Positions 15,148 through 38,963 of a stretch of DNA of 64,000 nucleotides are shown piece by piece; positions within the stretch are counted from its first letter, which is position 1; each line of letters starts with the position of its first letter. Origin of the DNA: Thermodesulfovibrionales bacterium (lineage in GTDB: Bacteria; Nitrospirota; Thermodesulfovibrionia; Thermodesulfovibrionales; SM23-35). A model generated the notes under the pieces. That model made no database searches, was not told the origin of the DNA, and was given only the letters and a program-made list of their open reading frames with translations. The DNA is taken from positions 25,058-89,057 of the forward strand of contig JAVHLL010000001.1 of the NCBI GenBank assembly GCA_031082155.1, in the 5' to 3' direction. Position numbers and translations under genes: made by a program.

Positions 15148-15198
15148 ATAACCAAAAGCATCAATGAGAACTAAGAGAAACGACCCGGAAAGTCCAGA

Positions 15199-15546
<348 letters not shown>

Positions 15547-15570
15547 TTATTCTCTAAAAAGTTATTCGTC

Positions 15571-15621
15571 AATAGTCACCAGTCATGAGAATCAATGACT
15601 AATGACTATTGACTATTTTTA
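15571..15621 (-). promoter_or_regulatory. intercistronic hairpin and heptamer repeats between amt and glnK
   Basis: AATAGTCA-cc-AGTCAT / ATGACT-aa-TGACTATT inverted repeat with an 8-nt loop. Three tandem (A/T)TGACTA units follow at 15595-15616. Confidence 0.35.
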
Positions 15622-22237: not shown

Positions 22238-24367
22238 ATGTTGCAACACGTGTTCCCTTTTCTGGAATGGCTGAAAGGCTACAGATTCGACAAATTAAAG
22301 GCTGACGGAATAGCAGGGTTGACTGTTGCGTTGGTCCTTATCCCTCAATCCATGGCGTATGCCCAACTGGCAGGATTGCCCTCCTATTATGGATTGTATG
22401 CAGCATTCCTCCCTCCCATGGTGGCTGCGTTATTCGGTTCCAGCAGGCAGCTTGCAACAGGTCCTGTTGCGGTTGTTTCTCTCATGACCTCGGCGTCTTT
22501 AAGCCCGCTTGCTACTCAGGGAAGCGAAAGCTATATTGGATACGCGATTCTGCTCGCCTTAATTGTGGGATTGTTTCAGTTTCTTTTAGGTGTCCTGAGA
22601 CTCGGCCTGGTCGTGAATTTTCTCTCTCACCCTGTTGTGAATGGCTTTACCAATGCTGCCGCCCTGATTATTGCCACTTCTCAATTGTCGAAGATGTTCG
22701 GAGTATCCGTTGATAATGCAGAGCATCATTACGAGACCATCATGCGGGTTATTCAGGCGGCAATACATTATACACACTGGCCGACGCTGATTATGGGCAT
22801 TGGTGCGTTTGCACTAATGTTCATATTGAAAAAGATTTCTCCCAAAATCCCCAATGTCCTTGTCGCGGTTGCGATCACCACAGTTATTTCATGGGCGATA
22901 GGATTCGAACACAATGCCACGGTTGATATCACAAGAATCGAGTCTCCAAAAGCAAAAGAACTCATCACAAACTTTAATAGAACCCAGGAAGAAATTTCAG
23001 CGCTCGCCAAACAACGGACAGAGATTACCAATCAACTCGAAACACTCAAGGGGAGCAAGGATAAAATACCGTTTCTCAATGTGAAATTGAATGAAGAAGT
23101 GATAAACACCCAACTGGAAGAGCGGAAAGCAACAGAGGTATCTCAGCGGAGCGAGATACGGGACCTGCTCTTCTCAGGGGTCAAGCAGCCCGACGGCTCC
23201 CTGACTTTTTATCTGAAGGATGAAGTACCCCAGAATGTAGTTACTGACGACAGCGTATGGCGCATCAGAGTCGGGAACAAACCGATAGATGAGAATTCCC
23301 TGCAGCTGAAAAGCGGCGGCGCTGTGGTCGGAAAAGTCCCTGAAGGACTTCCCTCTTTTACAATCCCGACCATAACGGTAAAAAGTATTCTCCATCTCCT
23401 GCCGTATGCGATAATTATTTCCCTGCTGGGGTTCATGGAAGCGATCTCGATTGCAAAAGCCCTTGCCGGAAAAACAGGACAGCGGCTGGACCCTAATCAG
23501 GAATTGATAGGCCAGGGGTTGGCGAATATGCTTGGTTCTGTCGGGAAAAGCTATCCGGTTTCCGGTTCTTTTTCCCGTTCGGCGGTCAATTTTCAGGCAG
23601 GAGGACTCACCGGGCTTTCGAGTGTGTTTACAAGCCTTGCGGTATTGATTGCGCTGTTGTTTTTTACCCCGCTGCTTTATCATCTCCCACAGTCTGTGTT
23701 GGCGGCAGTCATCATGATGGCGGTTATCGGCCTCCTGAATGTTTCGGGCTTCATCCATGCCTGGAAGGCGCAGAAGTACGACGGGATAATCTCCGTTATA
23801 TCGTTTGTTGCCACCTTAGTCTTTGCTCCTCACCTTGACAAGGGTATTATGATTGGCGTTGCGCTCTCTCTTTCGGTATTCTTATATAAGAGCATGAAGA
23901 CGAAAATATCCCTGTTGTCAAGGCATGAAGACAAATCGCTTCGCTGCATAGATACCCACGGTCTGCAGGAATGCGAGCATATCGCGGTGATGAGATTCGA
24001 AGGCCCGCTGTTCTTTGCGAATGCAAGTTATCTTGAAGACAGCGTCAGGGGGATTATGCTGACAAAAAAGAAATTGAAACATATTGTCCTCCTCGCAAAC
24101 GGCGTAAATGAGATGGATGCCTCGGGCGAGGAAACCTTGTCGCTGCTTGTAGACCGGGTCAGAAGCGCGGGGATGGATATATCCCTGGCAGAAGTGAATG
24201 AAGCGGTCCTGAAAGTTCTCAGACGGACCCATCTGCTGGAAAAGATCGGACAGGACCATGTCCATCCAACCCTTGACCAGGCAATAAGCAGTGTTTATTC
24301 TGTTGCCCATCGGGAAACGACTGAGCAGCAATGTCCTCTTATGGCTGTATGCAGGCTGGAGACTTAA
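22238..24367 (+). CDS. SulP-family anion transporter with STAS domain and a ~130-aa inserted soluble segment
   Basis: The N-terminus reads DGIAGLTVALVLIPQSMAYAQLAGLP..YGLY. The C-terminal STAS region reads VMRFEGPLFFANASYLED...DASGEETL. A charged, coiled-coil-like insert (ITRIESPKAKELITNF...SLQLKSGG) sits before the conserved VPEGLPSF segment. Confidence 0.88.
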   Translation: MLQHVFPFLEWLKGYRFDKLKADGIAGLTVALVLIPQSMAYAQLAGLPSYYGLYAAFLPPMVAALFGSSRQLATGPVAVVSLMTSASLSPLATQGSESYIGYAILLALIVGLFQFLLGVLRLGLVVNFLSHPVVNGFTNAAALIIATSQLSKMFGVSVDNAEHHYETIMRVIQAAIHYTHWPTLIMGIGAFALMFILKKISPKIPNVLVAVAITTVISWAIGFEHNATVDITRIESPKAKELITNFNRTQEEISALAKQRTEITNQLETLKGSKDKIPFLNVKLNEEVINTQLEERKATEVSQRSEIRDLLFSGVKQPDGSLTFYLKDEVPQNVVTDDSVWRIRVGNKPIDENSLQLKSGGAVVGKVPEGLPSFTIPTITVKSILHLLPYAIIISLLGFMEAISIAKALAGKTGQRLDPNQELIGQGLANMLGSVGKSYPVSGSFSRSAVNFQAGGLTGLSSVFTSLAVLIALLFFTPLLYHLPQSVLAAVIMMAVIGLLNVSGFIHAWKAQKYDGIISVISFVATLVFAPHLDKGIMIGVALSLSVFLYKSMKTKISLLSRHEDKSLRCIDTHGLQECEHIAVMRFEGPLFFANASYLEDSVRGIMLTKKKLKHIVLLANGVNEMDASGEETLSLLVDRVRSAGMDISLAEVNEAVLKVLRRTHLLEKIGQDHVHPTLDQAISSVYSVAHRETTEQQCPLMAVCRLET

Positions 24368-24386: not shown

Positions 24387-25613
24387 ATGTCAATTATAAC
24401 AGTATTTGCAGGGAACTACTGTAATGAAGAAACCGCAATAAAGGAAATTCTCAAGCAGACAAGCTACAGGCATCTGACTGACGCTGATATCATTGCAAAA
24501 GCGACCGGCCTGTCGAACCTTTCTGAAAGCAAAATAACCAGGGCTTTTTCAGCAAAGACGTCTGTTTTCAATCAATTCACCCATGAAAAAGAACGTGCCA
24601 TTACATATCTTAAACTTGCCACAGCAGAATTATTCGCGGAACATAAGGACAAAATTCTTCTTACAGGGTTTACAAGTATCCTGGTGCCGGCAACAATAAG
24701 GCATGCCTTGAGAATTTGCCTTATCGCGGATATGAAGCACAGGGTTTCCGTAGCGTCTTCTTCAGGAATGTCCGAAAGTGAAGCGCTCAAACTTATCCAT
24801 AAGGGCGATGAAGAAAGAATGCTCTGGACACAAAGCGTTCTGGAGAAAGACGATCCCTGGGATGCCTCGATTTACGACATGGTATTGCCTTCCGATAAGA
24901 TGTCGTTTACGGAAATAGCAGATTTAGTAGGAAAGACTTTAGGCAAAGATATCCTGAAAGCTTCGCGTGCCAGTGAAAAATCAATCGAAGATTTTCTCCT
25001 GGCAGCGAGGGTTGGAACCGCATTGGCGAAAGAAGGACACTTTATCACCGCAGAGGCGGATGCGGGTGCAGTCACTCTCACAATCAATAAACATGTGCTG
25101 CTGTTACAGCGTCTTGAGGAAGAACTCCGGGCATTAGCTGTCAAGGTCCCTGGGGTAAAGTCAGTTTCAACAAAAGTAGGCAAGAAATTCTATCAGGCTG
25201 ATGTGTACAGAAAGTACGACCTTGAAAATCCTTCTAAACTGCTTCTTGTTGATGATGAGCGACAGTTTGTACAGACGTTGTCCGACAGATTACGCTTGCG
25301 GGAGATTGGTTCTGTCGTTGCATATGACGGTGAAAGCGCCCTCGATTTAATCAAGGAAGAAGAGCCCGATGTCATGATTCTGGACCTGAAAATGCCGGGG
25401 ATTGACGGCCTTGAGGTCCTGAAACGGGTAAAACAGACAAGCCCGAATATCGAAGTCATTATCCTCACCGGACAGGGCTCGGAGGCAGACAGAAAATTAT
25501 GTATGGAACTGGGGGCTTTTGCGTATCTCGAAAAACCGGTAGATGTGAATCTGCTCAGCGAGACCATTAAGAAAGCCAACGAAAAAATAAGGCAAAGCAG
25601 GGAGAATACCTAA
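24387..25613 (+). CDS. cytidylate-kinase-like (degenerate P-loop) + BON-like + receiver (REC) fusion protein
   Basis: The start is moved to ATG 24387 (RBS GGAGGGAG). The N-terminal ~200 aa follow the Cytidylate_kin2-like pattern, but the P-loop reads FAGNYCNEE. The middle has a BON-like GAVTLTINKH...VPGVKSVSTKV segment. The C-terminus is a REC domain (LLLVDDE...VMILDLKMPGIDG...YLEKP). Confidence 0.75.
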   Translation: MSIITVFAGNYCNEETAIKEILKQTSYRHLTDADIIAKATGLSNLSESKITRAFSAKTSVFNQFTHEKERAITYLKLATAELFAEHKDKILLTGFTSILVPATIRHALRICLIADMKHRVSVASSSGMSESEALKLIHKGDEERMLWTQSVLEKDDPWDASIYDMVLPSDKMSFTEIADLVGKTLGKDILKASRASEKSIEDFLLAARVGTALAKEGHFITAEADAGAVTLTINKHVLLLQRLEEELRALAVKVPGVKSVSTKVGKKFYQADVYRKYDLENPSKLLLVDDERQFVQTLSDRLRLREIGSVVAYDGESALDLIKEEEPDVMILDLKMPGIDGLEVLKRVKQTSPNIEVIILTGQGSEADRKLCMELGAFAYLEKPVDVNLLSETIKKANEKIRQSRENT

Positions 25614-25928: not shown

Positions 25929-28235
25929 ATGAAAGACGAAGAGAAGAAAAAATTGCCGCGCAAGAAAACTGCTGCAAGAAGCTCGCGAAAAAAGGTCAAA
26001 TGCTGGGAAGTTTTCGACTGTAAAGAGAAGGCATGCCCTGCATATAAGTCGAGTAACACCAGGTGCTGGTTATTTTCAGGAACCCACTGCCGGAGCGAGA
26101 TACAGGGTGAATTCATCGAGAAGATGGAACTCTGCACCCATTGTAGTGTTTTTCAGGAGAATATTGACCTGAACGCAATGACCAAGACCCTGAACACGAT
26201 TGACGAGCAATTCAGAGAATACAAGGGCATAGTACAGTCCCGCGATAGAGAACTTGAAGGGATGAGCATGGAACTGGCGCTGAGTCTCTCAGAAGTATTC
26301 GAGGCGCTCAAGAAGATCTCGTCAGGGGACCCCACGGTGAGGATACCGGAAGAATCTTCCATTGAACTGATAAACAGACTCAAGCATATTGTGAATCTTA
26401 CTGCCAGGGAGATCGGCGAGATCGTGGATCAGTCTCACGAATTTGCCATTGTGCTTGCAGAGCATTTCGATATATTGCATAAAGTATCAAAGGGTGATCT
26501 GAGCGCCCGCGTATTCGGAGAATCCCAGGTTGAGCTCCTCGAGTCCCTGAAAAGGGTCACGAATGAAACAATCGAAAGCATTTCGAACGAGATTACAAAA
26601 AGAAAACAGGCAGAAACAGAGCTGCTGCAGGCATATGATAATCTTGAACAGCGCGTAAGGGAACGGACTTCTGAACTGCGGGTCATTAATGAGAGACTGT
26701 GGCATGAAATAGCAGAACGGAAAAGAGCTGAAGAAAATCTCAGAGAGGCAGAGCTGCGTTATCGTACTATCGCAGATTTTACCCATGACTGGGAATATTG
26801 GGAATCGCCCGACAAAACGCTGCGCTATGTGTCCCCTGCGAGTGAACGGATAACGGGGCATAAAGCGTCTGAGTTTCTCGAAAACCCCGGTCTTCTTGAC
26901 GACATTATTTATCCGGAAGACAAAGAAATTTGGGCGTCCCATCACCATGAAGCGCTTCATGAGACTGACCTGCATGATATCACATTCCGTATCACCAGGA
27001 AGGACGGAACAGTCTGCTGGATTGAACATGTCTGTCAGCCGGTAATTGATAGCGGAGGGAATTTTCTTGGGGTGCGGGCGAGTAACCGGAATATCACTAT
27101 GCGCAAAAAAGCAGAGGAAAAACTCAGGGATGCGCTTTCCCTTCTCAGTACTACTCTTGAATCAACTGCCGACGGTATTCTTGTAGTAGACATGAACAGA
27201 AAAATAGTGAGCTTTAACCAGAAATTTCTCCATATGTGGAACATCCTGAAGCCCTTGACAGAGGAGACTGATTTCGATCATATCTTAACGCATATTCGCG
27301 GGCAGTTAAGAGACCCTGACAATTTTCTGCAACGGGTCAGGGAATTGTATTCCCAGGATGAAAAAGAGGCCTCCGATGTCCTGGAGTTCCTGGATGACAG
27401 GTTTTTCGAGTACTATTCTCACCCCCAGAGAATTGGTGATACCATCATAGGGCGGGTATGGAGTTTCCGTGATATTACTGAACGGAAAAGAACCGAGAAA
27501 GCGCTTCGGGAGTCAGAACAGCTGCTCCTCCAGGCCCATAAAATGGAAGCCATCGGCCGGCTTGCAGCCGGTATTGCGCATGAGATCAATAACCCGCTCG
27601 CAATTATTAATGAAAAGGCCGGCCTGATAAAAGATTTTCTCGAGTTCTCCGGGGACCTTGAACACGACAAGGAAAAATTCCTTGGTTTGATCCAGGGGAT
27701 TTTTGAAGGGGTGAATCGTTGCCGGACTATCACCCACCGCCTCCTGGGGTTTTCAAGGCGGGTAGATGTATCATATAATACGATTGATCTGAACAATACG
27801 ATAAAAGAGGTAATCGAATTTATTGAAAAGGAGATCCTGTACAAAAATATCCGTTTAGAGATGACACTGCGGGAAGACATCCCCGAAATCATTTCTGATA
27901 AAGGACAGCTCCAGCAGGTTTTTCTCAATATCCTGAATAATGCTATGGATGCTGTTGATAAGGGGGGGCTCATAAAAGTCATATCAGGGGTAAAGGATGA
28001 AGAAACTCTGACCGTTTCAATTCAGGATAACGGACACGGAATTCCGGAACATATATCGAAGCACATTTTTGAACCGTTCTATACAACCAAGGACAAGGGA
28101 AGAGGGACCGGGCTTGGCTTGTCGATTTCCTATGGCATTATACGGAAACTGGGTGGTAATATTCTCGTAAAAAGTGCAGTCAACCAGGGAACGACATTTA
28201 CCATTGAGGTTCCTGTAAAAGCCAAAACTGATTAA
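25929..28235 (+). CDS. sensor histidine kinase with N-terminal Cys-rich 'two-CW' module, HAMP-like repeats and PAS domains
   Basis: The N-terminus reads KCWEVFDCKEKACPAYKSSNTRCWLFSGTHCRSE...CTHCSVF. Two PAS regions follow. The H-box is AAGIAHEINNPLAIINE, the N-box NILNNAMDA, G1 DNGHGI and G2 GTGLGLS. Confidence 0.9.
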   Translation: MKDEEKKKLPRKKTAARSSRKKVKCWEVFDCKEKACPAYKSSNTRCWLFSGTHCRSEIQGEFIEKMELCTHCSVFQENIDLNAMTKTLNTIDEQFREYKGIVQSRDRELEGMSMELALSLSEVFEALKKISSGDPTVRIPEESSIELINRLKHIVNLTAREIGEIVDQSHEFAIVLAEHFDILHKVSKGDLSARVFGESQVELLESLKRVTNETIESISNEITKRKQAETELLQAYDNLEQRVRERTSELRVINERLWHEIAERKRAEENLREAELRYRTIADFTHDWEYWESPDKTLRYVSPASERITGHKASEFLENPGLLDDIIYPEDKEIWASHHHEALHETDLHDITFRITRKDGTVCWIEHVCQPVIDSGGNFLGVRASNRNITMRKKAEEKLRDALSLLSTTLESTADGILVVDMNRKIVSFNQKFLHMWNILKPLTEETDFDHILTHIRGQLRDPDNFLQRVRELYSQDEKEASDVLEFLDDRFFEYYSHPQRIGDTIIGRVWSFRDITERKRTEKALRESEQLLLQAHKMEAIGRLAAGIAHEINNPLAIINEKAGLIKDFLEFSGDLEHDKEKFLGLIQGIFEGVNRCRTITHRLLGFSRRVDVSYNTIDLNNTIKEVIEFIEKEILYKNIRLEMTLREDIPEIISDKGQLQQVFLNILNNAMDAVDKGGLIKVISGVKDEETLTVSIQDNGHGIPEHISKHIFEPFYTTKDKGRGTGLGLSISYGIIRKLGGNILVKSAVNQGTTFTIEVPVKAKTD

Positions 28236-28246: not shown

Positions 28247-28627
28247 TTGCCAAAGACGAAAGTGCTTCTGGTAGATGACGAAGTGGAATTTGCCTCAGCG
28301 CTTGCCGAGAGGCTCCGGTTGCGCGGTTATGACACAAAAACCGTCTCCCGTGCCGAAAAAGCGTTGACGGTTATCCAGAATAATCCGCCTGACGTGATAT
28401 TGCTTGATTTCAGAATGCCCGGTATGGATGGTCTGGAGGCGCTGAAGAGAATCAAAGAGATCGCGCCTTCGATCGAAATTATCATGCTTACCGGGCTTGA
28501 AGATTCACAAAGCATCGAGGAAGCAAAAAAAAGCGGCGCTCCGGAATACATCATGAAGCCCGCTGATATTTACAACCTTATCGAGAAAATCGATCAGGCG
28601 AAGAAAAGATCCTCTGAACGGAAATAA
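28247..28627 (+). CDS. single-domain response regulator (REC only)
   Basis: VLLVDDE...VILLDFRMPGMDG...YIMKP. 126 aa, TTG start after GGAGGA. Confidence 0.9.
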   Translation: MPKTKVLLVDDEVEFASALAERLRLRGYDTKTVSRAEKALTVIQNNPPDVILLDFRMPGMDGLEALKRIKEIAPSIEIIMLTGLEDSQSIEEAKKSGAPEYIMKPADIYNLIEKIDQAKKRSSERK

Positions 28628-28648: not shown

Positions 28649-29089
28649 CTACCAGCCCTTTGCCTGAAGGATCTCCTTCACATGTGCTTCATGTTTTTTC
28701 TCTACAAGAATGACCCTCTTGCGTTTCGCTTCCGCAACCTTCTCCATGATCTTGTTCAGGTCAGCAGGTTTTTCAAGGAAGTCAACCGCCCCTTCTTTTA
28801 TCGCCTCAACCCCTTTCTCAACAGAGCCGTGGCCGGTCAGCATGATAATCTGCACATCAGGGTTCTCGCTCCTGATACGTTTGAGGGCCTCCATGCCGCT
28901 CATCCCCGGCATGGCGAGATCCAGAATGATTGCGTCAAATTCTTTCCCTTTGACCTTTGAAAGTGCTTCCTCGCCGCTGCTGGATGTGTCGACCTTCATG
29001 CCGCGTCCTTCCAGCCTCTGTGAAAGGACTTTGAGAAACTGTTCCTCGTCATCTACTAATAAAATATCTGCTTTAATCTCTTCTGTCAT
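28649..29089 (-). CDS. single-domain response regulator (REC only)
   Basis: ILLVDDE...AIILDLAMPGMSG...LTGHG...FLEKP. 146 aa. Confidence 0.9.
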   Translation of the reverse strand: MTEEIKADILLVDDEEQFLKVLSQRLEGRGMKVDTSSSGEEALSKVKGKEFDAIILDLAMPGMSGMEALKRIRSENPDVQIIMLTGHGSVEKGVEAIKEGAVDFLEKPADLNKIMEKVAEAKRKRVILVEKKHEAHVKEILQAKGW

Positions 29090-29164
29090 GTTCTCCTCCT
29101 TTATGGGGTTCTTCCCCCGTATTTTTTACATTCTCTGAAAATTGCCACTTTGTCAGAAAAGTGC

Positions 29165-29554
29165 CTATGGAGTCCTGGTACACTTCTCTCTGAACGCATC
29201 TTTTATCTTGTCTGCCAGTGTCTCGATATCAGCAGGTTTTTTCAGGAAACCGAATCCCCCGAGCATTTTCGCCTCCTCCTCTTCCTTATCGGTCCCGTGA
29301 CCGGTAAGTATGATAACCTGAATATGGGAGTGGGTCTTTTTAACCTCTTTCAGTACTTCCATCCCCTGCATACCGGGCATCCTCAGGTCGAGCACCATAA
29401 CGTCCGGTTCTTCCTGCATTAGTCTGGATAAGGCTTCTTCTCCGTTATAGACGGTTTCAACCTGTAAATCTCTCATTTTCAGGCGCTGGGCAAGCGTATT
29501 GGCGAGTGCGACTTCATCATCTACTATCAGTACTTTAATGCCCGCCTGTTTCAT
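29165..29554 (-). CDS. single-domain response regulator (REC only)
   Basis: VLIVDDE...VMVLDLRMPGMQG...LTGHG...FLKKP. 129 aa. Confidence 0.9.
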   Translation of the reverse strand: MKQAGIKVLIVDDEVALANTLAQRLKMRDLQVETVYNGEEALSRLMQEEPDVMVLDLRMPGMQGMEVLKEVKKTHSHIQVIILTGHGTDKEEEEAKMLGGFGFLKKPADIETLADKIKDAFREKCTRTP

Positions 29555-29632
29555 GGGAAGCCTCCTTGGGACTGTTTAACTTTAACAACAAATCCTTTTC
29601 GCGGTCAAGTGGCGAAACCCCTCAAAACCCTT

Positions 29633-30304
29633 CTAGGAAGCCGTCAGAGGAAGCATAATGAAGGTCTTTCCCGTTCCCTCCCGTACAATGTTCCCATTCA
29701 GTTGTTTTATTGTCTTTTCGACCACTTCATGAGGGACCGAAGGAACTTCGCTCTCCATCGTCTGGACATTTCCTTCCGGAATAATCTTAATCTGAACTGC
29801 ATGATCAGCACCGGCAGTCTCTATCGTGATCCTGCTGTCTTTCTCAAGCGTCAGCAGCCCTTCATCAAGGACACTGAATACTATAAACTGAAGGAGAGAT
29901 GGGTTGCTGAAAAGTGAAGGGAGGTCTTCCTGAAAATTTTTTATAAGGGCTATCTTCTTTTGCTTTGCAAACCTGGTCAGGAGGGCAATGAGTTCTTCGA
30001 TACTCTCATTGAGACTGAAGGACGAGAGTTCAGTGTCCATTCTGTGGGCAAACCGGTTCAGTGCGCGGAAATGTTCGTTTGCCCTTTTGATCTGATCTTC
30101 AACAGAACGCACAATCTGAAGATACTCGGAGAGGTCCTTTTCGGAAGACTTTCCCATCTGTACCATATCCCCAATCAATCCGACAGATTCATTGATAATC
30201 GCAAGGTAATTTTTTGATTCGTGGGTGAATCCTGCCAGGATTTTTCCGATAAAATGCAATTGCAGAAGCTTTAACTCCTGTTCGGACCTGTCATTGCTAT
30301 GCAT
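29633..30304 (-). CDS. histidine-kinase-like protein with conserved H-box but degenerate ATP-binding domain (Spo0B-like phosphotransferase candidate)
   Basis: The DHp region LAGFTHESKNYLAIINESVGLIGD aligns with the H-boxes of both neighbouring kinases. The N-box (SVLDEGLLT), G1 (PEGNVQ) and G2 positions are all lost. It has no sensor or TM region. 223 aa. Confidence 0.7.
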   Translation of the reverse strand: MHSNDRSEQELKLLQLHFIGKILAGFTHESKNYLAIINESVGLIGDMVQMGKSSEKDLSEYLQIVRSVEDQIKRANEHFRALNRFAHRMDTELSSFSLNESIEELIALLTRFAKQKKIALIKNFQEDLPSLFSNPSLLQFIVFSVLDEGLLTLEKDSRITIETAGADHAVQIKIIPEGNVQTMESEVPSVPHEVVEKTIKQLNGNIVREGTGKTFIMLPLTAS

Positions 30305-30322
30305 GTGACTCTCCCCTCCCGA

Positions 30323-30700
30323 TCAGCCCTTCTCCTTTTTTTTCCGGGCCCTGTCGATCTTGGATGTGAGTTCATCGATGTCTATTGGTTTCATTATATA
30401 TTCGAGAACTCCGCTCTGCATCCCTTTTTGAACGCTCGCAACGTCACCATGCCCGGTGAGCATGAGCACCTCTATCGTAGGATCGAATTTTTTAATATTG
30501 CTGAGGATTTCCAGACCGTCCATCCCTGGAATTTTCAAGTCGAGCAGGACGACATCAGGAGTGGACTCGTGGAAGAGGGCCATCGCCTCCAATCCGTTTG
30601 ACGCGGTCCTTACCTCGTAATTCCGCATCTGAAGTCTCTCTGCGAGCGCTGATGCGAATTCTACCTCATCATCGACTAAAAGCACCTTCGTCCGAATCAT
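30323..30700 (-). CDS. single-domain response regulator (REC only)
   Basis: VLLVDDE...VVLLDLKIPGMDG...LTGHG...YIMKP. 125 aa, 12 nt downstream of the kinase gene. Confidence 0.9.
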   Translation of the reverse strand: MIRTKVLLVDDEVEFASALAERLQMRNYEVRTASNGLEAMALFHESTPDVVLLDLKIPGMDGLEILSNIKKFDPTIEVLMLTGHGDVASVQKGMQSGVLEYIMKPIDIDELTSKIDRARKKKEKG

Positions 30701-30712
30701 TTCCTGTCCTCC

Positions 30713-32431
30713 TTATTCCGATGTGGACGTTGTGGGTATCTCGATCGTGAATTTTGTCCCTTTGGTTGCTTCACTCTCAACGAGAATATTCCCACCGAGC
30801 CTTTTTATAATACCATACGAAATAAACAATCCGAGACCCGTTCCCTTGCCTTTCTCTTTTGTTGTATAGAAAGGTTCAAAAATTTTCTTTAGCTTGTCTT
30901 TCGGTATTCCATGGCCATTGTCACTTACAGACACCTTGATTTTCTGGTCATTCACGGTTGTTTTTATGGTAATGGTCCCCTCTTTCTCCTCCAGGAGCGC
31001 ATCGAGCGCATTGTTGAAGATATTCAGCAGTACCTGCTGGACCTGACCTCTGTCACTCATCACACGGGGTAGGTCTTCTGCAAGAACCAGGTCAAGACGG
31101 ATATTCCTGAACAGGATCTCTTTCTCGAGGAAGCCGAGGACCTCCCTGATTGCGTCATTCATATCGAAGAGTTCGTGGGCTGTATCCATACGCCGGGAAA
31201 AACCAAGGAGGCGGTGCGTTATCGTCCGGCAGCGGCTCACACTGTCGAAGATCGAATTGATCAGGCCGATAAACTTTTCCCTGCTCTTCGACTGATCTTC
31301 TGACGCCTCAAGAATATCTTTCATTAATCCTGCTTTTTCATTGATGATGGCGAGAGGATTGTTGATCTCATGTGCAACGCCGGAGGCAAGCCGTCCGACA
31401 GAAGCGAGTTTGCTCGCATGCTCACTCTGTGCAATCGCGTCTTCCCTCTCTTTTTCCGCTTCCTGAATGCGGTTAACAAGAGTATTGGCGATCCGTGTCA
31501 CCACGATGATGCCGACAATAATGCTGATAATGGTGATAAAGAAAAGTTCGTTCTTGAATATCCTGGGAATTTTCAGGTAAGGCGCCGACTGGATCATTGC
31601 CACCAGCACCCATGGTGAGTGCTTCAGTTCTGCATACCCGCATATGGTGCATGCATCAGATGAATCTGTTATTTCCTGGACTGTCGCACCCTGTTGTGAA
31701 CCCGGCAGTGGAAAACTGAGTTTTTCGAGAACGTTCCCATGGAACCGGGAAGGCGTTTGAATAACTCCCTCTTTGTTAATAAGAAACGCATCATCCTTGT
31801 TCCCCAGGTTCATCGCAGATGCAAATTTGCTCAATGTCTCCACATCAATGGTCGCCCGCAAAATCCAGAAGGTCCCCTGTTCAGGCAGTTCTCTCTTTAC
31901 TGCGATGGCAAAATGAGGGAGTTTTCGGTAGCCCATGAATACATCGCTTACATAGACATTCTTGACAGTGACCTCATCAAACCAGTCCTGATTCGAATAA
32001 TCTTTCCCCTCCAGTTTGTACGGGCCGACATATGCCTGCTGGATGCCGTTGGCATCAATGATGCCAATGTCTACCAGGCCGCTTACTTCTCTCTTGAATT
32101 TCAGAAAAACGTTTGCAAGTGTTTTCCGGTCAGAGAGCTGCTCATAGGTGAATGCAGAAGCGATAAACCTCAGCCCGGACACACGCTCTTCGATAAAAAA
32201 ATCGAGGGATTGTTTGGTATTCTCGATCTGCCATTTTATCTGGCTCCGGTAATCCTCTTTCAGGATGGATTGAAACCAGAAGTAGCTTGTTGTCACCACG
32301 ATGAACAGGGGAATGAGGGACAGGATTGCGTCCAGCAGAATCACCCGTATTTTAAGACTTTTATACGGGTCTGTGGCGCTAATACTGAACAGATCGCGTG
32401 GGTGCCTCAGGTCTTTTAAAATGTTTTTCAT
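30713..32431 (-). CDS. sensor histidine kinase with periplasmic Cache-like domain
   Basis: Two TM segments flank a ~260-aa extracytoplasmic region. The H-box is ASGVAHEINNPLAIINE, the N-box NIFNNALDA, G1 DNGHGI and G2 GTGLGLF. It is a paralog of the 25929 kinase core. Confidence 0.9.
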   Translation of the reverse strand: MKNILKDLRHPRDLFSISATDPYKSLKIRVILLDAILSLIPLFIVVTTSYFWFQSILKEDYRSQIKWQIENTKQSLDFFIEERVSGLRFIASAFTYEQLSDRKTLANVFLKFKREVSGLVDIGIIDANGIQQAYVGPYKLEGKDYSNQDWFDEVTVKNVYVSDVFMGYRKLPHFAIAVKRELPEQGTFWILRATIDVETLSKFASAMNLGNKDDAFLINKEGVIQTPSRFHGNVLEKLSFPLPGSQQGATVQEITDSSDACTICGYAELKHSPWVLVAMIQSAPYLKIPRIFKNELFFITIISIIVGIIVVTRIANTLVNRIQEAEKEREDAIAQSEHASKLASVGRLASGVAHEINNPLAIINEKAGLMKDILEASEDQSKSREKFIGLINSIFDSVSRCRTITHRLLGFSRRMDTAHELFDMNDAIREVLGFLEKEILFRNIRLDLVLAEDLPRVMSDRGQVQQVLLNIFNNALDALLEEKEGTITIKTTVNDQKIKVSVSDNGHGIPKDKLKKIFEPFYTTKEKGKGTGLGLFISYGIIKRLGGNILVESEATKGTKFTIEIPTTSTSE

Positions 32432-32823
32432 TGACTGGATGAACTTTTTCTGTATGGTTTCTCTGTAGATTTCTTTTCAATATTCTATCACAGAAGGTCG
32501 TCCTTGTACCAAGAAAGGGTTGCGCAGTGCTCATGCTGAATACCTGGCTGTTAGCGATTGCATATTCCCTCTCGTTTCCCAAGGCTGATGGTGATACACG
32601 GGACTGTTTTCTGTTTTGCACCCTGTCCAGCCCCTTTTTTGAGGAGGGGCTGGACAGTCAAAAAAAAGAGGGGATGAGTCAATTGTTATATCATAAAGGC
32701 ATAACATCTGAGCCAGATGTAGACGTGGCAGAGAATGACTGATTCGATCATCAAAGACATACCGTAGCGCATGAACTGTCTGAATGATATGGAGTTGCCC
32801 ATTTTTTCAGCCATTCTGCAGCC

Positions 32824-34104
32824 TCAGTGCACCAGGTTATATTGCACAATATAGGCAGCTATACCCGCGAAATATCCGGCGGCGGCGAGCGGCCCTATGC
32901 GGCGCGCATACCAGAAAAATTCGATCTTCTCCAGTCCCATTGCGGCCACACCCGCAGCCGAACCGATGATCAGGATCGAGCCGCCTGTTCCTGCACAGTA
33001 GGCCATGAACTCCCAGATAAAAGAGTCCGCCGGAAACTGCGCAAGCGGGTACATTCCCATGGAAGCGGCCACCAGGGGAATATTATCCACTATGGCGGAA
33101 ACAAGGCCGATGATAATGACGATCATGGTTTGATTGCCGAGCTTTGCATCCAGCCACCCGGCCAGTGCCGGAAGCATGCCGTTTGCGGAAAGGGTAGCCA
33201 CCGCTAAAAGGATGCCAATGAAGAACACGACTGACGCCATATCGATGCGCTTGAGTGCCTTGGTCAATCTGAGGTGATCGAAATCCTCTTCAGACTTGTT
33301 GCGATGAAGGAGTTCCCCTGTCAACCAGACAACACCAAGGGCCAGCAAAATGCCAAGATAGGGGGGCAGATGCGTAAATGCCTTGAATATCGGGACAAAG
33401 ATCAGTGCTCCCATGCCCATGAAGAACATCAGTTTCTTTTCGAACGGCGAACAGCTGGAAGCCCCGTTTTCGACCTTGTCCGGGGGCACAACATTGCCTT
33501 TGACCATGAATGAGGCTATGACCAAAGGTACCAGCAGATTGACCATGGAAGCAATCCAGGTAGTTTTCATGATATTGAGTGTTGTGATCTGTCCGCCGAT
33601 CCAGAGCATGGTGGTGGTCACATCGCCGATTGGTGACCAGGCGCCGCCTGCATTGGCGGCAATCACGATAATGCCAGCGAAGAAGAGGCGTTGTTTATGG
33701 TCCTTAAGAAGGCGTTTCATCAGGGCGACCATCACGATGGTGGTGGTCATGTTGTCGAGAATCGACGAGAGATAGAAGGTGATAAAGCCGATGATCCAGA
33801 GCAGGCTTGTCAGTTTGGTTGCCTTAATGCGCGTGGTGATGACCTCGAAACCGCCGTGGGAGTCTGTCACCTCGACAATGGTCATGGCTGAGATCAGAAA
33901 GAATACGATGGCCGCGGTCTCAGCCAGTTTTTCAGTGAGTTGATGGATTACTGTTTCCACGCCCAGCGGGTTTGCAAACGAGTACAAGGTCCACATTAGT
34001 CCAGCGGCCAACAGGGCCGTGGCTGATTTGTTAATTTTGATCGGGTGCTCGAGCGCGATCATTGAGTAAGCGAGCACGAATACAACTGCTACCATTGCCA
34101 TCAT
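32824..34104 (-). CDS. NhaD-type Na+/H+ antiporter (IT superfamily)
   Basis: 426 aa, polytopic. ANAGGAWSPIGDVTTTMLWIGG and AGTGGSILIIGSAAGVAAMG are NhaD-like motifs. RBS AAGGAGG. Confidence 0.8.
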   Translation of the reverse strand: MMAMVAVVFVLAYSMIALEHPIKINKSATALLAAGLMWTLYSFANPLGVETVIHQLTEKLAETAAIVFFLISAMTIVEVTDSHGGFEVITTRIKATKLTSLLWIIGFITFYLSSILDNMTTTIVMVALMKRLLKDHKQRLFFAGIIVIAANAGGAWSPIGDVTTTMLWIGGQITTLNIMKTTWIASMVNLLVPLVIASFMVKGNVVPPDKVENGASSCSPFEKKLMFFMGMGALIFVPIFKAFTHLPPYLGILLALGVVWLTGELLHRNKSEEDFDHLRLTKALKRIDMASVVFFIGILLAVATLSANGMLPALAGWLDAKLGNQTMIVIIIGLVSAIVDNIPLVAASMGMYPLAQFPADSFIWEFMAYCAGTGGSILIIGSAAGVAAMGLEKIEFFWYARRIGPLAAAGYFAGIAAYIVQYNLVH

Positions 34105-34424: not shown

Positions 34425-35939
34425 TTACTTAAGCGTTATTGGCATTCCCAGCATCGGCCAGAATGTTACTATCGCAAAGCCGATGATTGCCACAAGCACC
34501 ACACTCAACAATAAGCCATGTCTAAAAAATTCACCCGGTGTAAACTGTTTTGATTCATAGGCAATCGCGTTCGGTGCAGCGCCGATCAGAAGCACAAAAG
34601 GCATACCTGCAGTAATCAGGGATGAGTAGAAAATTACATCAGGGGCTACACCCAGATATGGTGCGATAACCAGCGAAACAGGCAACGAGATCGCTATCGC
34701 AGCTACGTTCATAATAAAGTTCGTCATAATCAGGACAAAGGTTGCGATGCTGAGAACGAATACAAGCCAATGGGCGTTCTGGAACATGACAAGCCACTGA
34801 ACTGCCATCCACTGCGCAGCTCCCGTCTGCCAGAGGCAGAAACCGATACTCATTGCGCCGCTGAAAAGAAGGATGATATTCCAGGGAATATCTTCAAGTT
34901 CTTTTACAGTCAGCACCTTGAATATAAAGAAAAGAAGCGTTGATACGAGCATTATTGCTGCCCTGTCCAACGACTTTAACGCAGGAACAAAGGACTGCAT
35001 TGACATTACCGCGATAGCGCCTAACACCGTAATGATGACGAATTTTTCATCCCTTGTCATAGGCCCGAGTTCCTTGGAGAGTTTCGTGACTCTTTCCCTG
35101 AGTCCGGGGATGACACTCTTTTCAGGCTTCAGAAACATCATGAGGTATATCCAGATCAGAAATACCATGATCCAACCAATCAAAAAAGAGAATTTTGTAA
35201 GCTCAAAGAAACCTACTGTCTTGCCGGTAAATTCTGCAAACATTCCGGCGCCTGCTGCAGCCCTTGCAGAACCGAGGAAGGTAATAACGCTTCCGGCTCC
35301 GGCAGCATAAGCCATGCCGATGAACAATGACTTGCCGAATTTTGTAGGTTTATCTCCTTCACCATAGAGAGCATTGATAGCAAGCAATATCGGAAATACT
35401 GTGGCTGCGGCAGCGGTATGCGCCATGACATGTGCAAGACCGGCTGTAACCACCAGCGCTCCCAGCATGATCATGCTTGTTTTTTCGCCCACGATCTGGA
35501 GCATCTTGTATGCGAGCCGCTTTGTAAGCCCTGATTTTGTAAAGGCAAGCCCTACAACAACCGATGCGAAAATGAACATGACGGACGGGTCCATAAAGTC
35601 TTTAAAGGCATCTTTTGCAGGGCGTATTGCAAAGAGAGCCTGAAAGACGCCGATTGCAATCGCAGTGACGCCGATAGGAACAACCTCAAATATCCACCAG
35701 GTGGAAGCCAGTATGAAAAGCGCTATAGATCCTTTTCCCTGCGGTGACAGGACAAAATGCTTGCCTCCCGGGTCAACCGCGTCAGGCCAAGGGGGCATAA
35801 AATAGATCCACAAAAAGAGGCCTAATCCAATAAGGATAAACATAACCCGTTTCCAGTCAAATTTGTCTTTGGTTTCTGCAAGAACAATTTCAGGCGGTGG
35901 TTGGGGTAACCCCTCTGATTGTTTTTTCTGATCAGCCAT
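34425..35939 (-). CDS. DASS/SLC13-like anion permease (IT superfamily), copy A
   Basis: 504 aa, polytopic. GMAYAAGAGSVITFLGS and LLIGAAPNAIAYES are hairpin-type motifs. It is about 80 percent identical to copy B by eye. Confidence 0.85.
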   Translation of the reverse strand: MADQKKQSEGLPQPPPEIVLAETKDKFDWKRVMFILIGLGLFLWIYFMPPWPDAVDPGGKHFVLSPQGKGSIALFILASTWWIFEVVPIGVTAIAIGVFQALFAIRPAKDAFKDFMDPSVMFIFASVVVGLAFTKSGLTKRLAYKMLQIVGEKTSMIMLGALVVTAGLAHVMAHTAAAATVFPILLAINALYGEGDKPTKFGKSLFIGMAYAAGAGSVITFLGSARAAAGAGMFAEFTGKTVGFFELTKFSFLIGWIMVFLIWIYLMMFLKPEKSVIPGLRERVTKLSKELGPMTRDEKFVIITVLGAIAVMSMQSFVPALKSLDRAAIMLVSTLLFFIFKVLTVKELEDIPWNIILLFSGAMSIGFCLWQTGAAQWMAVQWLVMFQNAHWLVFVLSIATFVLIMTNFIMNVAAIAISLPVSLVIAPYLGVAPDVIFYSSLITAGMPFVLLIGAAPNAIAYESKQFTPGEFFRHGLLLSVVLVAIIGFAIVTFWPMLGMPITLK

Positions 35940-37184
35940 AATATTGCCTCCTTATTCCTTGATAAGTGAATCGGAAATTTCATCAAAGACTTCGATCATC
36001 CGTACGAGACCGACGAACTTCTTCTTGTTCTCTAAAACCGGCAGGAGAACAAGGTCGTGATGCACCATCAGATATGCCGCTTTGGTTACCGGATCGGCCG
36101 GATCAACAAACTGTTTTGCAGGGGCCATTATCTCGCTGACCGGCTTCTCCGCAAGCTCTTTCGACTGTTTGGTGAAAAGCGTATCCCAGATTAAAGAGAG
36201 TTCAGATTCCTGTTCCTTGTATCCCTGAGCCTTTTCTGAACCCTGCATAAACCTTGGTTCCAGCCCTCTGAGGATATCCTTCAGGGTAAGGGTCCCCATG
36301 AGGTTGTACTTTTCGTCGAACACCAGTATCGCCATCGGCTCAGGGTACTTCTTCGAGCTGATAAACGACACCTTGATAATCCTTACCGCCTGGTTGATCG
36401 TAAACCAGTAAGGGATGTGGGGATACTCAAAAATACCGATCATTACATCTTTCACAAGTTTTCCGTCTGCCATAACACCCTCCTTTTTATGCAACCTTTC
36501 TTTCGAATTCCATGAAAATTCTGAACCTGTCCGATTTCTTCACCGACTGCATGTACATGATCAGGGTATCTCCCGAATAAAATTGCTGGGTGAGCAGAGA
36601 AGCGGGAGCGCCTTCGGGGAGGTTCAGCAAACGAGCCTCATCTGTTTTCAGATGGGTAAGCTCGATAAAATTCTTTACCCTGGTAATTTTTATGCCGTAT
36701 TTTTTTTCGAAGAGATCAAAAAGGGAACGGGTTTCGATGTCGTCTTCCAGGAGGAGAGGGCAGAGATGGTAGGGGATATAGCATTCCTGTACCATAACCG
36801 GCTCATCCTGGACGGACCAGAGTCTTTTGATATAGATGACATGCTTTTCAGGGGATATGTCGAGAAGAGTATCAAGGCCATTCAACGGCATCATGACAGT
36901 TCTGGCAAGGACCTGCGGGGAAAAGGGGATCCCCTCTTCGAAGCACAGTTCTCTGAGATGCGCCTGCATATTCAGCCCTTCAGCTTGAGAGGTCCTGGAG
37001 ATGAAAGTTCCTTTTCCCTGCTGACGCTTCAGGTACCCCTGCCTGACAAGCTCCATAACGGCTGTTCTTACGGTGACCCTGCTGACATTAAATGTTTTGC
37101 AAAGCTCTTCTTCCGTTGGAATTTGTGCGCCTAACACCCATTCGCTCTTCTCGATTTTATTCTTGAAAATTTCGTACAACTGGT
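35782..37184. repeat. 1403-bp perfect direct repeat, copy 1
   Basis: It appears identical to 40927-42329 (offset 5145). All six-frame ORFs inside are identical between copies, and spot-checked nucleotide lines match. Identity drops abruptly at both edges: G versus A at 35781/40926, and G versus A at 37185/42330. Confidence 0.9.
35952..36473 (-). CDS. CBS-pair domain protein (173 aa), copy A
   Basis: Two CBS motifs. The start is set at MADGKLVKDV (RBS AAGGAGG 5 nt upstream), by analogy with the paralog at 56485. Confidence 0.85.
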   Translation of the reverse strand: MADGKLVKDVMIGIFEYPHIPYWFTINQAVRIIKVSFISSKKYPEPMAILVFDEKYNLMGTLTLKDILRGLEPRFMQGSEKAQGYKEQESELSLIWDTLFTKQSKELAEKPVSEIMAPAKQFVDPADPVTKAAYLMVHHDLVLLPVLENKKKFVGLVRMIEVFDEISDSLIKE

Positions 37185-37224
37185 GATACAGCTTATGATG
37201 ATCTTCCCTGTCTATTAATTCCAT
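36487..37224 (-). CDS. GntR/UTRA regulator, paralog 2 (copy A)
   Basis: (M)MELIDREDHHKLYHQLYEIFKNKIEKSEWVLGAQIPTEEELCKTFNVSRVTVRTAVMELVRQGYLKRQQGKGTF. An alternative start lies one codon upstream at 37227. Confidence 0.9.
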   Translation of the reverse strand: MELIDREDHHKLYHQLYEIFKNKIEKSEWVLGAQIPTEEELCKTFNVSRVTVRTAVMELVRQGYLKRQQGKGTFISRTSQAEGLNMQAHLRELCFEEGIPFSPQVLARTVMMPLNGLDTLLDISPEKHVIYIKRLWSVQDEPVMVQECYIPYHLCPLLLEDDIETRSLFDLFEKKYGIKITRVKNFIELTHLKTDEARLLNLPEGAPASLLTQQFYSGDTLIMYMQSVKKSDRFRIFMEFERKVA

Positions 37225-37592: not shown

Positions 37593-38963
37593 TTATATCT
37601 TTAATACATAATATCTTAGCCAGACGTAAACGGTTGCAACGAGAACGGTCATGACCATTATGGGCATACCGTAGAGCATGAACTTCCCGAAGGAGATCCT
37701 TTTGCCGAGCTTTTCAGACATGCCGACAACAATAACATTTGCCGATGCACCGATTGCGGTCCCGTTTCCGCCAAGACATGCGCCAAGAGCCAGTGACCAC
37801 CAGAGCGGCATCAGATCAGCATGATGGAGAAGCTGTGTCCCCGAAAGGTCCGGCCAGAGCTGCTTTGCCATATCAACGATCAATGGGTTCATGGTCGCAA
37901 CATACGGGATGTTGTCAATAAAGGCTGATGCAAAGGCAGAAAACCACATGACAACCATTGAGGTTGCGAACATGTTTCCCTGTGTTAACTCAAGGACTTG
38001 CACAGACATCCATTTTATGAGCCCTACCTTCACAACACCCCCAATAATAATGAAGAGACCCATGAAGAAAAAGATTGTCGGCCATTCTACTTCTGCGAGA
38101 ATATGATGCGGTTCGTGGGTTTTTGAAAGAAGGAGCAGGAGACCGGCGCCGAATAATGCTACTGTTGCAGGCTGGAAATGCAGCACTCCATGGAATATAA
38201 AACCGGTCAGAACAATTGCAAGGACGAAGAGTGATTTTTTCAGCATAACCGGGTCTTTGATGGCCTCATTTTCCTCCATGGACATGATTCTTGTTTTCAG
38301 TTCCTCTTTTGTCTTGAGTTTCTTGCCCCAGATGAGTTTTATCGCAAAGACGTAAAAAACCATTATGATAATGACAATAGGAGACAGATGGTATATGAAA
38401 TCCATAAAGCTGAGCTGGGCCTTTGAAGCTATCATGATATTCGGGGGGTCGCCGATAAGGGTTGCGGTACCACCGATGTTGGAAGCTAAAGCGCAGGAAA
38501 TGAGATAGGGCAGAGCGTCCACCTGTAATGCATCTGCAATGAGAATGGTCACCGGGACGATCAGGAGTACGGTGGTAACATTGTCAAGAAGTGCGCTTAA
38601 TACGGCGGTGACAATAGCAAATATTACCAAGATTCTGAATGGCTCACCTTTTCCCAACTTGGCGCTTTTTACTGCTATATATTCAAATACGCCGGTCGGT
38701 CTCATCAGGTTGATGATGACCATCATCGAGATAAGCAGGAAGATGACATTCCAGTCAATCCCGAATTCCTCTACATGAAATGCCTCGTGCTGTTCAAGAA
38801 TCTTGAGAATAAGCATTACCCCTGCGCCGAAGACTGCAACAATCGTTTTATGTATTTTTTCCGATACAATAACTGCATAAGCGATCAGGAATATCGCGGT
38901 CGCTATCCAGAACGAAGAACCCATAACAACCTGGGTTGTGGCAGCAGCAACTTCTTCGGTCAT
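37593..38963 (-). CDS. ArsB/NhaD/CitMHS-like permease (IT superfamily), copy A
   Basis: 456 aa, polytopic. ASNIGGTATLIGDPPNIMIAS and GGNGTAIGASANVIVVG motifs. The start overlaps the upstream CBS gene stop (ATGA). Confidence 0.85.
   Translation of the reverse strand: MTEEVAAATTQVVMGSSFWIATAIFLIAYAVIVSEKIHKTIVAVFGAGVMLILKILEQHEAFHVEEFGIDWNVIFLLISMMVIINLMRPTGVFEYIAVKSAKLGKGEPFRILVIFAIVTAVLSALLDNVTTVLLIVPVTILIADALQVDALPYLISCALASNIGGTATLIGDPPNIMIASKAQLSFMDFIYHLSPIVIIIMVFYVFAIKLIWGKKLKTKEELKTRIMSMEENEAIKDPVMLKKSLFVLAIVLTGFIFHGVLHFQPATVALFGAGLLLLLSKTHEPHHILAEVEWPTIFFFMGLFIIIGGVVKVGLIKWMSVQVLELTQGNMFATSMVVMWFSAFASAFIDNIPYVATMNPLIVDMAKQLWPDLSGTQLLHHADLMPLWWSLALGACLGGNGTAIGASANVIVVGMSEKLGKRISFGKFMLYGMPIMVMTVLVATVYVWLRYYVLKI

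Follow-up and report, generated by a model that had tools for sequence, protein, structure and literature searches.

Results and Discussion

A five-gene operon encoding a kinase-derived protein between receivers

We analysed 64,000 nucleotides of contig JAVHLL010000001.1 (positions 25,058 to 89,057, assembly GCA_031082155.1) from a Thermodesulfovibrionales bacterium of the phylum Nitrospirota, hereafter called the window. At its positions 28649-32431 the window carries a minus-strand operon for a sensor histidine kinase, three receiver-only proteins and, between the first and second of these, a 223-aa kinase-derived protein, pHK, which probably passes phosphate between receivers. A first-pass annotation had described five open reading frames (ORFs) here as resembling a phosphorelay of the His-Asp-His-Asp type, like that of Spo0B. 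All five ORFs were confirmed at the coordinates below, and Pfam searches gave the order histidine kinase (HK), receiver (REC), pHK, REC, REC. The genes, and the parts of pHK in its dimerisation and histidine phosphotransfer (DHp) and catalytic and ATP-binding (CA) regions, are as follows.

30713..32431, minus strand: HK1, membrane sensor histidine kinase, 572 aa (Pfam dCache_1 4.5e-15, HisKA 2.1e-07, HATPase_c 2.2e-28)
30323..30700, minus strand: REC1, stand-alone receiver, 125 aa (Response_reg 1.2e-31), proposed first phospho-acceptor, Asp54
29633..30304, minus strand: pHK, 223-aa kinase-derived protein, residues 2-87 forming a DHp hairpin and residues ~94-223 a pseudo-CA domain with no lid, proposed histidine phosphotransferase or phospho-hub
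30167..30235, minus strand: H-box and receiver-docking half of DHp helix 1, pHK residues 24-46, AGFTHESKNYLAIINESVGLIGD, with the His28 codon at 30221-30223
29636..30025, minus strand: pseudo-CA domain of pHK, N-box replaced, G1/G2 deleted, F box lost (alignment A1)
29165..29554, minus strand: REC2, stand-alone receiver, 129 aa (Response_reg 8.3e-30), active site intact, candidate acceptor after pHK
28649..29089, minus strand: REC3, NtrC-type stand-alone receiver, 146 aa, with a C-terminal tail of ~25 residues (Response_reg 1.5e-33), proposed terminal receiver

HK1 has two transmembrane segments, predicted by reading the sequence, on either side of an extracytoplasmic dCache_1 domain, followed by HisKA and HATPase_c; its H, N, G1, F and G2 boxes are all intact, and NCBIfam models assign it to the AtoS/ZraS-type class. 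Compared with PDB sequences as a guide to the ligand, its dCache sensor gave a single match at E=0.5. Response_reg is the sole Pfam domain of REC1, REC2 and REC3. The five genes are separated by gaps of 12, 18, 78 and 75 nt, each is preceded by a strong Shine-Dalgarno site, and no minus-strand terminator was predicted inside the run.

A scan of 28-33 kb for σ70 promoters and terminators returned counts equal to the shuffle expectation and nothing usable. By eye, a 13-bp hairpin after a T-run is seen between HK1 and the upstream CitMHS transporter gene (~32625-32665, minus strand), and a candidate extended -10 promoter, TTGGTA-19 nt-TGaTAGAAT, lies ~65 nt 5' of the HK1 start (~32470-32505, minus strand). 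A plus-strand terminator-like hairpin with a T-run at 29102-29131, in the REC2-REC3 spacer, is antisense to the operon and 475 nt past the end of REC4, a receiver gene of the opposite strand; terminator-like matches around these positions occur at chance frequency.

H-box, ATP site and ancestry of pHK

Against Pfam, pHK gave no HisKA or HATPase_c match at E<0.1; full-length kinase models of NCBIfam still match its residues 16-178, which cover the DHp and extend halfway through the CA domain (AtoS, 3.8e-12). In alignment A1, where pHK was set against the cores of HK1 and of HK2, a paralogous kinase encoded convergently to the operon, identity to both cores is 29-30% and a LAIINE…GL motif is common to all. 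The segment FTHESKNYLAIINE of pHK stands opposite AHEINNPLAIINE of the two kinases, with THESKN aligned to the AHEINN of both, and the H-box is intact (His28, Glu29, Asn32). In the CA region Ser and Asp/Glu stand where the N-box of the kinases has Asn residues, both the G1 (DNGHG) and the G2 (GTGLGL) segment are missing, and opposite the F box (FEPFYTTK) pHK has only unrelated residues. The first-pass annotation had claimed a retained DHp helix with its phospho-accepting histidine, loss of the N, G1 and G2 boxes and the lack of a sensor region. The alignment and a family-wide invariant histidine (see below) bear out the first point, the second extends to the F box, and the third agrees with a DHp helix that begins at residue 2 of the structure model.

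The AlphaFold2 model of pHK, computed from the family alignment (pLDDT 91.2, pTM 0.87), consists of two long helices (residues 2-49 and 55-87) followed by an α/β domain. At the position of the ATP lid it has ~14-19 residues versus ~32 in kinases, and residues 178-191, modelled at low pLDDT, are the sole link from the last strand pair to helix 192-201. In keeping with the dead catalytic domain proposed at first pass, no intact ATP pocket was found by hidden Markov model (HMM), alignment or structure model. Hpt (PF01627) was not among the Pfam matches of pHK or those listed for 40 family members, and the model, a two-helix hairpin plus an α/β domain, is not an HPt fold. Judged from sequence and model, pHK is a histidine-kinase derivative predicted to be no longer able to bind ATP, and one that most likely keeps a phospho-accepting histidine, which we propose to be functional. 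Because it lacks a sensor, ATP-binding motifs and the Pro at H+5 (see below), pHK is predicted not to be an autokinase.

A Foldseek search of the PDB with the model placed the canonical DHp-CA cores of HK853, ZraS, DivL and RetS at the top (E ~1e-11), and a profile search of PDB sequences with pHK returned ZraS (4e-10), ThkA (5e-10) and RetS. No chain of Spo0B or ChpT appeared in the profile search (E<=1) or among the top 50 fold matches, and no SPOB model of Pfam (SPOB_a, SPOB_ab) matched pHK or is among the 25 families listed for 40 family members. The Spo0B likeness suggested at first pass therefore stands for the architecture and fails for homology: with no Spo0B or ChpT match and with ZraS/AtoS/ThkA-type kinases as nearest relatives, the resemblance is, as far as sequence and model can tell, convergent, by architecture and not by descent. 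By its sequence matches, the pHK family derives independently from NtrB/AtoS-type kinases.

The pHK protein family

HMMER, run without a word index against 1.84 billion cluster representatives (clusters at 50% identity), recovered about 203 clusters at E<=1e-30, nearly all of them stand-alone proteins of 205-245 aa, and a word-based search recovered 120 relatives, all of 190-243 aa and 0 with a precomputed Pfam domain. The exact pHK sequence is present in a Thermodesulfovibrionales metagenome-assembled genome (MAG) as a 'hypothetical protein'; members are currently annotated in this way or, wrongly, as 'nitrogen-specific histidine kinase', and the family is not curated in Pfam or NCBIfam.

Residue conservation was counted on full-length representatives from the HMMER search, after removal of seven N-terminal fragments. 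In this unbiased sample His28 and Asn32 (H+4) occur in 143/143 representatives and Glu/Asp29 in 140/143, G42 and D46 are invariant too, and the most conserved surface of the family is the receiver-docking half of helix 1. Pro at H+5 is present in every kinase of the gene module described below and in zero pHK family members, a loss that fits a protein in which the mechanics of an autokinase would be lost and docking kept. The CA-domain HMM scores 0 on all 80 family members from GTDB; among the representatives no score exceeds 11.5 bits apart from that of a single true kinase, a 557-aa outlier. Pfam HisKA is found only sub-threshold, in 16/40 family members (best E 0.0033), and HATPase_c is not among the 25 Pfam families listed for 40 family members. 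A second histidine, H87, lies in the motif FAHRMD at the DHp-to-pseudo-CA junction (residues 85-90) in 144/149 family members; kinases have GFSRRMD.

The lost catalytic motifs and the lack of a Pfam domain might be taken to mean that pHK is a functionless, decaying remnant of a duplicated kinase gene. This decaying-pseudogene reading is effectively refuted by the conservation data: the family, with about 203 clusters (50% identity), is uniform in length and has many residues that do not vary, its synteny is conserved across phyla (see below), and pHK has a strong ribosome-binding site and a confident fold.

Two other readings would give the DHp domain a role short of phosphotransfer between receivers. 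The pHK dimerisation domain might pair with HK1 or HK2, as RetS does with GacS, and either block autophosphorylation or have its His28 phosphorylated in trans by the CA domain of these kinases. It comes from the same kinase subfamily (29-30% identity, shared LAIINE…GL motif), RetS is among both the sequence and the fold matches, and the pHK gene is always encoded with a kinase; mere blocking, however, needs no invariant His, Glu and Asn, and the surface conserved most is the one for receiver docking, which makes this very unlikely in our view. A scaffold or sensor like DivL, in turn, would bind a phosphorylated receiver and relay its state allosterically, carrying no phosphate itself. DivL tolerates Tyr instead of His, whereas the histidine in 143/143 pHK representatives argues for chemistry at this residue, and pHK has no extra domains to signal through. 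We consider this reading highly improbable, although the DHp-CA region of DivL is among the best fold matches and histidine pseudokinases in which information flows in reverse are on record for bacteria (PMC4211667).

Conservation of gene order and classes of receivers

The placement of pHK among receivers, on which the phosphorelay reading leans, was followed in a scan of one genome per GTDB species. It yielded 157 loci with pHK relatives; the best 80 of 157 were analysed and annotated with HMMs built from the window proteins, 67 of them having enough upstream flank and 74 enough downstream flank. Carriers are Thermodesulfovibrionales and other Nitrospirota, as well as members of several Desulfobacterota orders (Desulfobulbaceae, Desulfurivibrionaceae, Desulfocapsaceae, Syntrophobacterales, Desulfohalobiaceae and Desulfomonilaceae); the loci further include two Gemmatimonadaceae MAGs. 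The order dCache kinase-REC-pHK was found in 57/67 loci, and in 64/67 when seven loci with genes for a SulP transporter and a CMPK-REC protein (see below) inserted before pHK are included; of the exceptions one locus is permuted and two are damaged. Recurring in dozens of species-level genomes, the arrangement lies far beyond chance, and the gene order proposed at first pass thus proves to be conserved across phyla in its kinase-REC-pHK part, usually with receivers after it.

At least one receiver lies within 3.5 kb downstream of pHK in 60/74 loci. REC3-class proteins (~146 aa) are found downstream in 46/74 loci and REC2-class proteins in 31 cases, and a REC1/REC4-class protein stands directly upstream of pHK in 53/67 cases. 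The receiver orthogroups are thus positionally distinct, REC1/4 upstream and REC2 and REC3 downstream of pHK, and in every class the acidic pair, the acceptor Asp, the Thr and the Lys are kept in the large majority of members. The parts of a phosphorelay (kinase, intermediate receiver, second His carrier, terminal receiver) are encoded together in this module.

Fusion proteins downstream of pHK in the annotated loci are REC-REC or Usp-REC, never DNA-binding (L017 7020-7994, L070 863-1867, L076 8683-9588; L019 8742-9527, L021 8758-9534), and in L001 a tandem-Usp protein precedes the kinase. The ORF at L045 7725-8651, in which the first ~95 residues of a REC1-like receiver are joined to pHK just before the H-box, was considered as a natural REC-pHK (Rosetta-stone) fusion and rejected; the receiver is truncated, and a deletion or an assembly artefact is the likely cause of the junction.

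The proposed terminal receiver and its output

The complete Ca. Magnetomonas plexicatena genome carries a run of overlapping or abutting genes in the order CMPK-REC, dCache kinase, REC, pHK, REC, REC-σ54 AAA+-HTH, and the three single or fused receivers around pHK map to the REC1/4, REC2 and REC3 classes in turn. The REC2-like receiver is 53% identical to REC2; the receiver of the σ54 activator is 41% identical to REC3 (92 bits), with other classes at <=70 bits. In view of this fusion between a REC3-type receiver and a σ54 activator, REC3 is best read as the terminal, NtrC-type receiver, apparently split from its effector in most lineages.

Activators of this kind also occur as separate proteins. 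A REC-less PAS-σ54 activator is encoded just upstream of the kinase in 28 Desulfobacterota loci, with a REC3-class protein nearby in 19/28, and in Syntrophobacterales-type loci σ54-type promoter-like sites lie before the kinase and before the downstream receivers. The activators were seen at L004 2045-3806 and, in L031-L064, at about 3.8-5.5 kb; in L004, activator and dCache kinase are separated by an ORF of 114 aa that weakly matches Nitro_FeMo-Co (NifX-like). The conserved σ54-type promoter-like site TGGCACGATAATTGCT precedes the dCache kinase in L052, L056 and L062 (about 5470-5490), and TGGCACGGTCATTGCT or close variants precede the downstream receivers in L052, L054, L056, L060 and L062 (about 8845-8925; about 4077 in L054).

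No σ54 activator is encoded within the 64-kb window. A σ54 output in the window was rejected, as one promoter-like match with a mismatch was found versus 3.64 expected by chance. With neither activator nor promoter in the window, the effector of REC3 would here be unlinked or not transcriptional. The first-pass statement that the terminal receivers have no output domain thus holds for this operon and not for the extended module, which includes CMPK-REC with SulP and, in other lineages, σ54 activators.

A convergent kinase with its own receiver

Next to the operon, on the opposite strand, two further signalling genes are found.

25929..28235, plus strand: HK2, soluble paralogous kinase, 768 aa (two-CW domain, two PAS, HisKA, HATPase_c), convergent to the operon
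28247..28627, plus strand: REC4, stand-alone receiver, 126 aa (Response_reg 9.1e-29)

A convergent paralogous kinase with a two-CW domain, a like H-box and its own receiver had been described at first pass, and the description is correct on all counts: the model two_CW_domain NF045718 scores 37.8 bits (cut-off 35), the HK2 core is 60% identical to that of HK1, and the docking helix HEINNPLAIINEKAGL is identical in both. REC4 is the closest paralogue of REC1, and a recent one (54% identity); starting at the acidic pair and running into helix α1, the two match in 14 residues without a difference (DDEVEFASALAERL). The HK2-REC4 pair adjoins the module in close relatives only.

A proposed split phosphorelay and its alternatives

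The invariant histidine, the dead ATP site, the position between receiver orthogroups and the σ54-fused terminal receiver make a relay the simplest account of pHK. Degenerate kinases are known to act as phosphotransferases in Spo0B, ChpT and PhyT (PMC5898713), a relay role that is also described elsewhere (PMC9981736). [quoted passage not shown] HK1, and in the lineage of the window also HK2, would autophosphorylate and phosphorylate REC1 and REC4, respectively. REC1~P or REC4~P would then dock on the DHp helix of the pHK dimer and donate its phosphoryl moiety to His28, from which it would pass to REC2 and REC3 and possibly also to the receiver of CMPK-REC. With REC3 a stand-alone protein, the output here would be by protein-protein contact, the likely targets being SulP, DASS or CitMHS transporters or an unlinked activator. 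We infer the phosphotransfer steps, the direction of flow and the target alike from sequence and from analogy with known systems.

Several observations weigh against such a relay. The docking helices of kinase and pHK are near-identical, as is helix α1 in all five receivers, so that HK1 could phosphorylate every receiver directly and a relay would be unnecessary. In 14/74 loci there is no receiver within 3.5 kb downstream of pHK. REC1 has an ordinary NtrC/FixJ-like LTGHG β4 and an aromatic switch residue, not a FATGUY-type motif. Finally, Glu at H+1 together with Asn at H+4 is the HisKA phosphatase motif, and a phosphatase role fits equally. Two further comparisons gave no information: covariation of DHp helix 1 with receiver α1 over the 80 loci had zero power, the helices being almost invariant, and the FATGUY or Rec-inter criterion for intermediate versus terminal receivers did not discriminate, as all five receivers have LTGHG and the aromatic switch. 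The FATGUY-type motif has been reported for several relay intermediates by a paper that itself calls the significance of the motif unresolved (PMC9981736).

The phosphatase role can be put more concretely as a dedicated or gated phosphatase like RedE of Myxococcus xanthus, in which the DHp face of pHK, with its HExxN, would dephosphorylate receivers that the kinase phosphorylates directly, and phosphorylation of His28 by REC1~P would be only a switch. HExxN is a phosphatase motif of HisKA proteins, and in the family E/D at H+1 is near-invariant (140/143) and N at H+4 invariant. The alike receivers and DHp docking helices make direct transfer from kinase to receiver plausible, REC-REC fusions occur downstream in some loci, and the gene set is like that of redCDEF, which encodes a kinase, a dual receiver, a soluble kinase-like protein whose His is N-terminal, and a single receiver. 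RedE acts as a phosphatase and in turn takes phosphate from a receiver (PMC2755868). However, its phosphatase activity is His-independent in vitro, whereas the histidine of pHK is absolutely invariant, and its activity on RedF-P is reported to be ADP-dependent, whereas the pHK family is without any nucleotide-binding motif (PMC2755868). A pure phosphatase would also leave the separation of upstream and downstream receiver orthogroups unexplained, and we regard a RedE-like role as rather unlikely, yet as the main and a serious rival of the relay.

Linkage to anion transporters and the CMPK-REC protein

The signalling genes are flanked on both sides by transporter genes, and a further receiver is encoded beside one of them.

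22238..24367, plus strand: SulP/STAS anion transporter, 709 aa (Sulfate_transp 2.5e-106, STAS 4.7e-16), immediately 5' of CMPK-REC
24387..25613, plus strand: CMPK-REC, 408 aa (Cytidylate_kin2 4e-13, Response_reg 2.3e-27), ORF callable from GTG 24291
32824-34104, minus strand: CitMHS transporter (CitMHS 4.1e-31), same strand as and directly upstream of HK1
34425-35939, minus strand: DASS transporter (Na_sulph_symp 2.9e-45), same strand as and upstream of HK1

Positions 22238-45882 of the window form a dense anion-transporter island around the signalling module, with a further DASS gene at 39570-41084, CitMHS/ArsB-type genes at 37593-38963 and 44452-45882 (81% amino acid identity to each other), and CBS-domain and GntR/UTRA genes interleaved with the transporters. 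Part of the island is a tandem duplicate: a GntR-CBS-DASS cassette of 2.7 kb is found at ~34523-37224 and again at ~39668-42369 (88% nucleotide identity), and a CitMHS/ArsB plus CBS pair lies between the two copies. Within ±8 kb of pHK, a DASS gene is found in 34 of the 80 loci and a SulP gene in 19, and 48 loci have at least one of four transporter types there.

CMPK-REC consists of an N-terminal cytidylate-kinase-like domain, a middle α/β domain and a C-terminal receiver. In place of the Walker-A GK[ST] it has G-x-[FY]-C-N-E-E, with C12 and N13 invariant, so the cytidylate-kinase-like domain, judged by this motif, is probably not a kinase. Its homologues are mostly 403-412 aa long, and all those among the homologues listed are at least 70% identical to the window protein. 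The AlphaFold2 model (pLDDT 64) was too low for a fold search and better only at the middle α/β domain (~195-265). CMPK-REC is encoded in 25/80 loci. A SulP gene stands immediately upstream of CMPK-REC in 18/26 cases from two phyla (Nitrospirota and Syntrophobacteraceae), and in Syntrophobacteraceae the SulP/CMPK-REC pair lies inside the module, between the REC1 and pHK genes (e.g. L067 4529-7926).

From this gene neighbourhood SulP is likely to be a functional partner or target of CMPK-REC, and CitMHS and DASS upstream of HK1 are possible regulatory targets. The transporter linkage suggests that the module governs the uptake of some anion. DASS and SulP family members also transport carboxylates. 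In sulfate reducers both families are candidate sulfate transporters, and the comparative genomics paper on this subject has none of the regulator terms looked for in it (PMC5840216). A bolder reading joins these threads: a phylum-spanning split phosphorelay with an independently evolved phosphotransferase and receiver-only outputs, among them CMPK-REC paired with SulP/STAS, would control anion, possibly sulfate, uptake post-translationally and via σ54 in sulfate-reducing Nitrospirota and Desulfobacterota. We consider this, taken as a whole, quite unlikely.

Other genes of the window include a minus-strand cluster at 12005-16995 with glutamine synthetase and two ammonium-transporter genes, and two unrelated two-component pairs at 47203-49676 (a HisKA_3 / 7TMR-DISM kinase and a REC protein) and 59984-62680.

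Comparison with known phosphotransferases

To our knowledge, the only characterised kinase-derived histidine phosphotransferases are Spo0B, ChpT, PhyT and, in part, RedE. Spo0B of the Bacillus relay (KinA-Spo0F-Spo0B-Spo0A) is like pHK in its DHp-like His hairpin, its α/β domain that does not bind ATP and its place between two receivers; in both systems every component is a protein of its own, with a stand-alone first receiver. The two proteins have no detectable sequence relationship and occur in different phyla, pHK coming from NtrB/AtoS/ZraS-type HisKA kinases. The terminal receivers in the window, unlike that of Bacillus, are without a DNA-binding domain, and the genes form one operon, whereas those of the Bacillus relay are scattered.

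ChpT of alphaproteobacteria (CckA-ChpT-CtrA/CpdR) likewise has a DHp and a degenerate CA domain and no sensor. It passes phosphate to more than one acceptor, one of them being a receiver-only protein (PMC9981736). ChpT has no sequence match to pHK, is unrelated in taxonomy and biological role, and is fed by the receiver of a hybrid kinase, whereas the pHK module has a separate intermediate receiver. For PhyT, the flow from a kinase through a single-domain receiver to a kinase-like protein with a degenerate ATPase, and on to a response regulator, was shown experimentally, and the transfer requires the conserved His (PMC5898713). PhyT is anchored in the membrane, has a periplasmic domain and is of the HWE/HisKA_2 type (HRxxN), whereas pHK is soluble, sensor-less and of the HisKA type (HExxN); the output of the PhyT relay is a partner-switching regulator.

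In the RedCDEF 'four-component' system of Myxococcus xanthus, as in the pHK operon, genes for a membrane kinase and for receiver-only proteins stand in one operon with the gene for a soluble protein that is kinase-like and has its His near the N-terminus (His24 in RedE, His28 in pHK). RedE obtains its phosphate from a receiver and not by autophosphorylation (PMC2755868). Compared by description only, RedE differs as a phosphatase acting on the output receiver, an activity reported to depend on ADP, the pHK family being without nucleotide motifs, and the order and number of receivers differ too.

The closest relatives of pHK in sequence, sharing its fold, are the NtrB/AtoS/ZraS-type HisKA kinases (AtoS 3.8e-12, ZraS 4e-10, ThkA 5e-10), from which it differs in that sensor, ATP-binding motifs and the Pro at H+5 are all absent. 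Systems of such kinases with NtrC are also like the module in their NtrC-type receivers and in the σ54 activators linked to it in many genomes.

In the literature searched we found no earlier description of the pHK family or module, which is not proof of absence. Multi-step phosphorelays with a kinase-derived phosphotransferase are known; new is the pHK family, widespread in Nitrospirota and Desulfobacterota, as a probable independent instance, and the module is distinctive in its receiver-only outputs, its pseudo-nucleotide-kinase receiver and its transporter linkage. If the phosphorelay reading is true, pHK would represent a further independent origin of the kinase-derived phosphotransferase solution. 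Each component of the proposed relay is a separate small protein encoded in one operon, which makes the system unusually well suited to phosphotransfer profiling in vitro. Its carriers are anaerobes of environmental importance, in which signalling has hardly been studied, and the linkage to SulP, DASS and CitMHS gives a testable lead on the regulation of anion, possibly sulfate, uptake. Should the link to sulfate be true as well, the module would be a candidate for the missing regulator of sulfate transport in dissimilatory sulfate reducers.

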